DNA from: Octopus vulgaris
Taxonomy: Eukaryota
Length of the DNA stretch: 64,000 nt
Direction of reading: 5' to 3'
Assembly: GCA_951406725.2 (NCBI GenBank)
Contig: OX597830.1
Coordinates: 69,192,001-69,256,000, forward strand
In this document: positions 25,631 through 64,000 of the stretch, one piece after another
Position numbering within the stretch: the stretch's first letter is position 1
Layout: each line of letters starts with the position of its first letter
Notes under the pieces: model-generated
Seen by the model: only the letters and a program-made list of their open reading frames with translations
What the model was told of the DNA's origin: nothing
Databases searched by the model: none
Program-made: the position numbers and the translations under genes

Positions 25631-26739
25631 ATGTGCAAGTTGTTTGCAAGACATGTGTGGGTGATTATCACTGTTTGCATATGTGTATGTATGTATGTAT
25701 GTATGTATGTATGTTTTCAAGCAAGCATGTATGTATGTGTGTATGTGTGTATGTATGTATGTATGTATGTATGTATGTATGTATGTATGTATGTATGTAT
25801 GTATGTATGTAAATTATTTTGACATTTTGAAAAAGAACGTCTGAATCATATTTTGTTTAAATGTAAAAATACAAACATATAAAATGAATTTCGAAAATGT
25901 TCAAAAGTGAAGATTTTGTGGTGTAGTTGGATGAAAAGTTAATAAAAACAATATTGTTTTTAAAATATCGGAATAGTGTCGAAACTACAGGGAGAAACTA
26001 TAAATTATAGATTTTTAAAAGGAATTGATTAACATTCTAAGAGTTCACAGATAACGAAGCATGTGTTACATCATTTCTGCAAAAGTTCGAAAGCATTTGA
26101 TCAGGGATCAGAAAATTAGCCAAAGGTTTGAGGATAAACAAAATAATCATAAAACAGATACATACGATTGCCAACTTTCAAGTCACTTCATCAAAGCCAA
26201 ACTGTTCAATTCAGTTTCTTTAAGTAGAATGATGCGGTCTTAACCTCACACCCACACATTCAATAGTGAAGCGCATTGAAGTATAACAGAGGTCATACTG
26301 ATTATAAAGAAAAACGGTAACCTTAAACCGAAAGTCAAATCTATTTATCAGGAGGCCGTGACAGCTGCAATTTGCCACTCCTATATAAGATCATACAATG
26401 CATTCTAATCGTGACAAAACTTAAGAATACACTAACATGACAGGTCAAATGACAAAATTTGTATACTTACGTAATCCAATATACATTCATGTAGACATCC
26501 ATCCGTACGTCCATCCATTCATCCGTTCATATATACATACATACATATATACATACATACACACATACATACATATATACATGCATACACACATACATAA
26601 ACACATGCTTATATACATAGATACATAAATTTATGGATACATATGCATATATAAATACATGAATGCATACGTATATATATATATACGTACATGCTTATAT
26701 ACATACATACATGCATACATACAGACATACATGCATAAT

Positions 26740-28780
26740 CTTTTAACCACCAAATGTCTAAGTGCATCTCTTGACCAGGTTTGCATATATGAGGCTAAGA
26801 TCATAAGACTTGGAAAGCGGCTCCTTGAGCAGCATTTCTTGTCTGATAAGCTTAAATACATATCAAAAAAGCCGCACGACTCTACCACGGTATGTCATCA
26901 GATGAAAAGATGAGCGCATATCAGCAGAAGCCCATGCATGTATATGTGAGTAGGAAGCACCGAGATAATAGTAACATTTGTCACTAAAGCAGTCTATTAT
27001 AGACCAGCAACCAGATTCCTACTTCCCACCTTCACTTGAAGGGTATGCGGTTGCAATCCAGGGATATGAAATATCAAACAAATATACGATGCACAAAAGA
27101 AGAGAGATACATGAAAAGCAGTAATATATGAAAACCTATGCAGTTGTTCGAAAATGTCATCACAGTATTAGCTACCGATGAGATATGATGTAGTAGCTAG
27201 GACATTGTATATAACGAGTTCCGTCGGAAGCATAAACCCGAGAACAAAGAAGAACCCACGGTATGGTAGACTCCATATCCATTTATAATAAAAAGGAGTA
27301 CTGGTGAAATGCTCCTCTGGAAACCTCAATAAATTATAAACATATTATACGTGGTATAATCATTTGGGATAGAGAAGAGAGACTGTGTATAGTTGTGGAA
27401 ATCAACTCACCTGCAGATGTTAACATAAAGCCGAAGAGAAGCGAAAGAGAAAATACGCTGAAAAATAAAATACCTACGCAAAATCTGCAGTTACTCTAAT
27501 CAGATTACAAGTTCGTGTTTATACCTGTAATTATTAGGGCACTAGTATATGTAACACAATGCGTAAATACCAGTCTTGAGTAATTGGACTTCTCAAACTC
27601 AGAAAGAAGAAAGCTAATTCGAAGACTACATATCCAAGCAATCAATGGAACTCTAAATATCTTATAAAATTTTCCAGAGGCTTATAGTTTAAGTATATAT
27701 GAGTATGTCTAGATATGCAAGTATATGCATTGGAATACATACCTAAAACAAAAAATATCTTATAAAATTTTCCAGAGGCTTATCATTTAAGTATATATGA
27801 GTATGTCTAGATATGCAAGTATAAGCATTGGAATACATACATAAAACAAAACATAAAAATTTGCACATACACAAATATTTGATTTATATTTTTGAAATTC
27901 AAATGAAGAAGAATTGGTTCTGGGTTAGAATCCGGCTCCTCTATTGTCACGAAAGCTTGAAATAAAACTGAATAAAACTGAATACTGGCGAACATACATA
28001 AATGCTTACATACATACATAAATAGATATATATGCATACACACATGCATAGATACATACATACATACATACATACATACATACATACATACATACATACA
28101 TACACAAAAGACACAAATCTGTACGTATACATATATACATACACACAAACATATCCTGTTGTTGATGCTAAAATTACAATGAAAGAGCCTTGGATTTTTG
28201 TTAAGAAACCGGCCCTTTCTCTTTTGGCAAGAAATCTTGAAATAAAACTGAATAAAAACATACGTACATTCTCAAAGGCTACAGAGCTGCAGTTTGGCCA
28301 GAATAAATGTTGCTACATGATTGTGAAATGAGGGATGCTGTAAGCAAGACTAGCAAAATTTCCAACACTGACTTAACTGTTTCCTCTATATCTGATGAGG
28401 GATGTTACAGGCACCAAGGGGTGGAAGAGAACATATCATACAATGACACATGTAACAACAAATCATGTGTCATTAAAGAATGTTATAGTCGAATAAAAAA
28501 CATTTGGACCCAGAACTCTGTATTCAGAAAAAAAAAAACAGTGACTCAAAATGTATTTGCTGTGCCAATACTCATACCAACATTTAGGCTGGTTGGACGC
28601 TCGATGAGATCCGAACTATTGATGTGAAAACCCCAAACATGCTAACCAGCAGACACAAGTTCCACACCAACAGCGACGTACAACGCCAATACCTAAAACG
28701 AAAACAAGGCAGCAGAGGTTTAATATCAATCCAGACTGCCTTTCAATGTCGTATCCCTTCGGCAACATTATTTAAGTGCC
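26740..28780 (+). mobile_element. Decayed R4/Dong-type LINE pieces (REL domain, duplicated 3' UTR, then RT fragment); copy at ~34020-36900
   Basis: IIWDREE..C.VVEI.SPADVNI...LQLL..DYKF.FIPVII; FAVPILIPTF...FHTNSDV.R...KRKQGSRGL; a ~98-bp tandem duplication at 27657-27855. Confidence 0.8.
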
Positions 28781-62700: not shown

Positions 62701-64000
62701 GTCGCCCGTAATTCAAGTACCATGCAGTTTTGATATAGTTCTTCGTATTCCACTTGAGATTCTTGCTCACTTTCTCATAATTATTCGATGAATCATGTTC
62801 TGCTCTATTTTAAACAAACCTACACGTTGTATTATTATTTTTACTTCCTAATTCAATGAATAATCACAAATATCTTTGTATAGAAATCAACTTCTGTCTG
62901 GGCAAACGATATTTCAGCAAAGAAGCATTAAACTATATTCACGATAAATGCAGGATAAAACAATGATAATCTTGGCAGCGTTTTCTGGAAGTTGAATGTA
63001 GTCTTCGAAGAAGGCTCAAAAGTACTCCTTAATTTTGGTGATGCATGACCTGTAGGAGCGCAGATATTTCCATCTTGTTATTGGGTATGTAAGGGAATAT
63101 TAGGGTGTGCATTTAGCTATATGCATTTAAAAATCCTTTTCAATTTAATACTATGATACATTGGTTATTAGCTGCAAAGTGAAACAAGGATGACAAATAT
63201 CATAATAGGTTTTGACATGTAAATACATAAATAAAACACACACACATACACAAAGAAGCACGCACTCACACATGTGCACATTCTCTCACGCATAAAACCA
63301 CGTTCAGTCTCCTTTATCTCTCTCGGAATTCATGTACCACGCAGATTTATTTAATCTGTTTGTATTCGATTTGAAATGTTTGTTGAAATTCTCATAAATA
63401 CCCTGCCCTATTTTAAACATACCCAGATGTTGCCATGTAACATCAACCCTTAGGAACGAGAAATGCAGCAACAAAATCATTAGCAATTAAGTTTAGGTTG
63501 AACCTATTTTCATACGTATACACGTACTTGCCGTGCTCCCTATCTACCTGCCTATATACATACACACACGTATATGCATACATACACACATACATGCATG
63601 CATGCATACATAGATACATACATATTACATGCATTCATACATACATAAATAACTACCTACATGCACACATGCATGCATACATACATGCATATATATGTAT
63701 ACACTTTATTTTGTGTGTGTTCGTCTTTGGGTGTCTAAGCGACCTTCGATTTGGGTATATGTGTATATTTGTATAGATCTATCTTTTTCTCCCTGAAACA
63801 ATATATATATATATATATACTAGCTGAAGGTGACCCGCTCTACGCGCGGGTAAGAGTGTGGTTGTTACTTTCTGTTGCTTCCTTTCAGCACGTAAAAAGC
63901 ACCATCCGAACGTGGCCGATTGCAGCGCCGCCTTGACAGGCTTCTGTGCCAGTGGCTCGTAAAAAGCGCCAACCGATTGTTACCGCTCCAAGCCCACCTG
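53760..64000 (+). repeat. Tandem segmental duplication B, copy 2 (runs off the window)
   Basis: Junction aattttgGT|cactggagag with 2-bp microhomology; collinear with 37959-48200. Confidence 0.95.
55920..59290 (-). mobile_element. Duplicate of the RTE LINE
   Basis: Same ORF fragments at an offset of ~15739 bp. Confidence 0.92.

Follow-up and report, generated by a model that had tools for sequence, protein, structure and literature searches.

A decayed exon-intron-like unit, putatively from a small secreted-protein gene, carried in recent segmental duplications of the Octopus vulgaris genome

Duplicated (unprocessed) pseudogene fragments occur inside intrachromosomal segmental duplications. 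The locus described here resembles such fragments in having kept an exon-intron-like layout, in disabling mutations that are common to all copies, in neutral divergence, and in the presence of many copies of 90-99% identity on one chromosome, but it is unlike them in that searches of the genome and of protein collections turned up no functional parent gene. The cysteine-rich domain (CRD) of Frizzled (Fz; PF01392) has a ten-cysteine pattern, given in PMC6938638 as CnCnCX8CX6CnCX3CX6-7CnCnC. A module of our locus, here called A, is like the ROR/MuSK subtype of this domain in its length of ~120 codons, in a partial C-x3-(S)-x7-C echo, and in being possibly secreted; it differs in giving no profile match and in the absence of cysteines C3 and C5. 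RLE-type LINEs encode a knuckle with the spacing CX2-3CX7-8HX4C, with Arg, according to PMC5678591. Two pieces of the locus (E and the core of B) are like these elements through the reverse transcriptase (RT) fragment and CCHC knuckle spacing of their dispersed copies, whereas only short decayed fragments are present here, and the parts A, C, J, and I do not fit such an element.

The window, meaning the whole analyzed stretch of 64,000 nt, corresponds to C17:69,192,001-69,256,000 in a genome of 2.8 Gb. A MuSK-like exon of the genome shares 92% identity with a protein from Argonauta hians, consistent with an octopod host. Recent duplication blocks with 98-99.7% identity extend from 24.7 kb onward, and the duplicated zone recognized by the initial annotation was confirmed, with 89.7% of positions 25810-63500 having a twin of at least 90% identity inside the window versus 0% of positions 1-24700. 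The larger block is repeated at C17 44.7, 67.3, 68.3-68.8, 69.2-69.3, 79.7, and 79.9 Mb. The blocks at 69.2 Mb versus 79.7 and 79.9 Mb are 10 Mb apart and 99-100% identical, which reflects either a very recent duplication or, in part, an assembly artefact. The mosaic, the unit that carries our argument, its homologues, and its recent duplicates are as follows.

24761-64000, no strand: mosaic of recent segmental duplications, a portion of the larger C17 block
47623-47713, minus: J, signal-peptide-like first exon with ATG, donor G|GTATGT, and one stop
47372-47622, minus: spacer 1, intron-like, 251 nt, GT..CAG
47018-47371, minus: A, exon-like module, phase-1/phase-1, 354 nt, 7 in-frame stops, 7 Cys
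46724-47017, minus: spacer 2, intron-like, 294 nt, homologous to spacer 1
46435-46723, minus: B, start of a second module, then microsatellite; acceptor and first ~14 nt resemble A
44308-44398, minus: I, another signal-peptide-like exon, diverged; one stop, donor G|GTATGT, ATG lost
30752-30905, minus: spacer preceding C, homologue of spacers 1 and 2
30380-30760, minus: C, decayed A homologue with several frameshifts, acceptor and donor lost
62820-63513, minus: recent duplicate of J-spacer-A, 95-98% identity
53540-53759, minus: truncated A duplicate, abutting a D fragment at a rearrangement joint

The best copy had been described as a 354-nt stretch between an acceptor and a donor, and this held exactly: A (47371-47018, minus) runs from a pyrimidine-rich CAG to G|GTTTGT with phase 1 at both ends. 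Fifteen full-length, one partial, and eight internally deleted copies of A were recovered at 90-100% identity; of the 15 full-length copies, 10 measure either 351 or 354 nt, and all 34 matches to A in a genome search were on C17. An alignment of 251 nt between the two spacers flanking A shows 73% identity, and the spacer preceding C is 66% and 72% identical to them (z 5.2 and 8.9). A and C are also homologous (z 6.7, reached by 0 of 200 shuffles). Together, the spacer homologies and the A-C homology indicate that an old unit of ~0.6 kb was truly copied locally, long before the recent duplications arose. Loci L041-L111 and the window were also scanned with a DNA profile built from A, C, and D (a candidate relative of A, treated below), which detected no additional diverged units. 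B resembles A at the acceptor end (z 14), and the similarity of the rest is not significant (99 of 500 shuffles). C contains a 103-codon open frame that was considered as a near-intact exon and rejected because its alignment to A requires several frame changes in C; an ESM Atlas search with this frame gave no usable match, a result that shows neither absence nor novelty.

J, whose phase agrees with that of A, resembles a first exon encoding a signal peptide, a feature that the initial annotation had missed. It starts with an ATG at 47713 and has Lys at +2, a hydrophobic core, and 30 codons plus 1 nt before G|GTATGT; phase 1 is common to the donors of J and A and to the acceptors of A and B. 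An open (stop-free) copy of J was identified at C17:68,345,078, where the A acceptor is mutated and A carries a deletion. I has kept the donor and the hydrophobic frame at 72-75% identity to J and is followed by a truncated spacer. All 35 matches to J/I and 55 of 56 matches to the donor pattern were on C17; single C12 matches to the donor pattern and to the C frame were rejected, as there was no module around either. The arrangement of an ATG-Lys-hydrophobic exon with a GTATGT donor turned up at just one of 215 donor-like sites in other DNA sampled as background, as counted with our own hydrophobicity rule, not SignalP. T-rich DNA readily gives hydrophobic frames, and the signal-peptide pattern was spotted after the fact. 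Judged on phase and layout, J and A would correspond to a small secreted-protein gene.

Our preferred explanation, which we hold as probable with some reserve, is that J-spacer-A-spacer-B is what remains of a small gene, dead for a long time, whose secreted protein belongs to no assigned family. It now exists in multiple copies as neutral passenger DNA in recent C17 segmental duplications, and most likely has no function today. Each of the 15 full-length copies of A has at least 3 in-frame stops, counted with a 27-nt segment of uncertain frame left out, and stops are common to all of them. Variants among the A copies comprise 9 synonymous, 34 nonsynonymous, and 2 nonsense changes (expected synonymous share 0.244, p 0.80), and the copies evolve neutrally. 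In the two most divergent A copies, the proposed frame contains 4 stops, fewer than any of the other five (6-11), which speaks for this frame. The earlier proposal of a dead gene with a phase-1 exon and intron in tandem copies remains plausible to this extent, without its Frizzled/ROR multi-CRD part. The ancestral gene would have consisted of a signal exon followed, after a phase-1 intron, by an exon of ~118 codons. Unequal crossing-over could have created a tandem copy of the last few exon-1 bases, the intron, and exon 2, which would explain both the spacer homology around A and the signal-exon-like end of A, and further copies would have led to C and to the second signal exon I. Loss of function would have been followed by frameshifts, microsatellite growth, and LINE insertion, and segmental duplication would later have multiplied the relic passively; the inserted LINE and an amplification confined to C17 are directly evident in the genome. 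As it stands, the locus is one more decayed sequence carried by segmental duplication and matters little, but if an intact orthologue appeared in another cephalopod, it would suggest a secreted-protein family not yet described and help to date the loss. An abstract-level literature search found no such family in octopus, which does not show its absence from print.

An old local tandem duplication that never coded, with the splice-like ends and hydrophobic frame arising by chance, is the alternative that survives best, and we regard it as rather unlikely. Several properties of the decayed copies favor it. As first noted, the stop density is about random, with 7 stops in the proposed frame of the window copy and 5-10 in each of the remaining frames. 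Mismatches by codon position (39/38/39% for A-C plus A-D) reveal no codon-position bias, protein-level constraint in the proposed frame was null for A-C (237 of 500) and J-I (172 of 500), and conservation of the spacers equals or exceeds that of the exon-like parts. The missing Pfam, PDB, and protein homologues described below are likewise as expected of DNA that never coded. What argues against this explanation is the ordered occurrence, in phase, of an ATG-hydrophobic exon, a GTATGT donor, and a pyrimidine-CAG acceptor, together with the rarity of the signal-exon arrangement at background donors. Moreover, the constraint tests rest on 29-44 codons, where any signal would be swamped by long decay, and so leave a coding past neither proven nor excluded.

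A genome search in which only the best candidates were scored found no living paralogue, and a match at C5:22.83 Mb (E 0.37) was rejected as low-complexity DNA. Since no functional parent was found, the coding ancestry of the relic is something that we infer. Contigs from sequencing runs over 46870-47755 (4 of 22 runs, three of them presumed RNA and the fourth of unspecified type) read straight through the proposed donors and acceptor without splicing. Their sole joint is a ~137-nt AT..TG deletion that is also present in the genomic copies at 68.3-68.8 Mb, and this result was not used for or against splicing.

The module had initially been assigned to a Frizzled/ROR-like CRD and the locus to a multi-CRD array, assignments that drew no support from Pfam, PDB, protein, or genome-built profiles. 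It is improbable that A and C, perhaps with D, once encoded a divergent CRD of the Frizzled/ROR-MuSK type in a secreted protein and survive as fossil exons. The 118-codon length would fit an Fz-CRD, a signal exon would suit a secreted CRD protein, and a run of 15 residues at the A end resembles the C6-C8 region of the ROR of this genome (z 2.6, matched by 3 of 200 shuffles), although this was the best of several results among 57 comparisons. Nevertheless, Pfam Fz gave no match at E<=10 among 15 reading frames, a profile of read-through A copies found no CRD in the PDB (only MecA at E 0.5), an HMMER scan of 1.84 billion proteins with the read-through profile returned 0 matches at E<=0.001, and a word-indexed protein search with A, which is weak evidence, gave no match. 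Profiles were also built from this genome, using its 19 Fz hits and 9 ROR/MuSK domains. Against 8167 background tiles, the A copy in the window came 1183rd with the Fz profile and 1035th with the ROR/MuSK profile, and a plain ROR/MuSK HMM placed it at 886-2107 of 8167. The PF01392 search located 20 places in the genome, and these true Fz exons are all on contigs other than C17.

A decay-aware test, consisting of a codon model with 15-25% decay and frameshifts, is the fair version of the argument that missing cysteines lie one substitution away. With the ROR/MuSK model, the scores were reached by 33 and 50 of 100 shuffles for A, 42 and 38 for D, and 2 and 3 for C. Across the Fz and ROR models, C exceeded 97-100 of 100 shuffles, which favors a Frizzled-like origin, but A and D were at the null level, and the reverse strand of C scored 17 bits on the Fz profile versus 19 bits for the forward strand. 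Decayed distant Fz controls gave 12-30 bits, overlapping the null, so the power of the test is low for distant members. The A frame has Cys at 5, 19, 44, 75, 86, 91, and 103, of which Cys19 occurs in no copy other than that of the window, and 3 of the 6 core cysteines (core positions 66, 75, 82, 91, 95, and 103) are present. One missing core cysteine (AGT) is indeed a single substitution away, whereas two others (GCT and TTA) require two changes. The C-x3-C-x7-C spacing, when a near Cys is accepted beside two true ones, was observed in 147 of 1000 shuffles of A, and the pooled cysteine motifs had mixed frames and non-homologous pieces. Cysteine spacings pooled in this way, antisense LINE included, arise readily in AT-rich DNA. 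An AlphaFold2 model had a mean pLDDT of 40.5 and a pTM of 0.34, and its fold is uninformative. It is similarly improbable that the relic records an extinct or octopod-specific, secreted, multi-module family of highly divergent Frizzled-like exons that has left no living member in this genome or among proteins currently collected.

The following pieces had been listed as module copies or lie within such copies, or are fragments of them.

28808-29051, minus: E, dispersed RLE-type LINE fragment with its ORF on the minus strand
46255-46434, plus: RLE-type LINE ORF fragment, core of the 46.3 kb copy
25812-26330, minus: F, a separate old family
30910-31143 and 31454-31553, minus: G and H, members of the F family that match F
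29650-30077, plus: D, candidate relative of A
53758-54003, plus: truncated D fragment, adjoining the truncated A duplicate at a rearrangement joint

Most of the DNA outside transposable elements in the duplicated zone had been attributed to a single module, but the linked family covers ~1.8 kb of ~19 kb of nonredundant sequence, as computed from coordinates. Within the list of copies, the homology of A and C stands, and the remainder mixes LINE sequence, the F/G/H family, first exons, and the borderline D. Two of the listed pieces, at 28.8 kb and in the core of the copy at 46.3 kb (46255-46434), are dispersed repeats rather than module copies. The 28.8 kb piece gave 1008 candidates genome-wide, with 27 off C17 among the 40 scored, and on the strand opposite to that of the proposed copies, E and the 46.3 kb core match the ORF of a LINE, with tblastn E values of 9e-9 and 6e-4. 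The dispersed copies include an RT fragment (RVT_1, E 3.5e-4) and, in copy L055, a C-R-x-C-x8-H-x4-C knuckle; we take this RLE-type LINE to belong to an R4/Dong-like clade. A word-indexed protein search with the LINE fragment, again weak evidence, found no match. Because the LINE ORF aligns to the plus strand of 46255-46434, the CDMMWRRL motif (part of "LCR-NCDMMWRRL"), which had been read as part of the CRD, is antisense LINE, and this also argues against a Frizzled-like domain. A match to a dispersed transposon family was one of the findings that the initial annotation itself had named as contrary to its module, and it applies to these two listed copies.

The pieces at 25.9, 30.9, and 31.45 kb match each other (z 32 and 10.7, 100 shuffles) and not the A body (z -0.6 and 0.0), and all 31 matches to F are on C17. 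On the minus strand, F (~26070) and G (~31085) have an acceptor-like TTTTGCAG|AAAT at homologous places with no open frame after it; these sites may represent another decayed exon type. The pieces at 44.3 and 47.6 kb share with A essentially the donor and the following spacer only. The relationship of D to A is borderline (z 3.2, 1 of 200 shuffles), and D versus C gave z -0.8. D (window 29640-29860) has one clear homologue, on C6 (L061, C6:101.292 Mb; z 12.9), and that homologue shows no link to A (z -0.1). An origin as a relic of an ancient low-copy transposon, or as gene pieces moved by a Helitron, is very improbable, for although Helitron Rep and PIF1 fragments are near several copies of the block, D has its one off-chromosome homologue, and LINE pieces are abundant in the region, matches to A, J/I, F, and the donor pattern are essentially restricted to C17, unlike those to the adjoining dispersed repeats.

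The Helitron PIF1 and Rep fragments near C17 copies of the block are at L053:4531-5361 and L073:317-991, and ORFs similar to such fragments are present in L091/L092 and L111. Between H and G, a palindromic, MITE-like dispersed repeat is inserted at window 31160-31435, and a query containing it had 3062 candidates genome-wide. An Rfam search of 25800-48400 gave no match. Decayed LINE-like sequences without a Pfam match occupy window 40114-43600 (minus) and 34140-34835 (minus); by eye, we presume them to be RTE-like and CR1/L2-like. A 98-bp tandem repeat in two copies is located at the end of a LINE piece (window 27655-27855 and 35798-35998).

Elsewhere in the genome, a tandem cluster at C23:23.47-23.49 Mb (L046-L048) contains five single Fz-domain exons with PF01392 scores over the cut-off, three of them nearly identical, and another Fz exon lies between LDL-receptor class A exons at C23:28.56 Mb (L049). 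Unlike the present window, these C23 exons form a genuine gene or cluster with multiple CRDs, and they are the better lead of the two.
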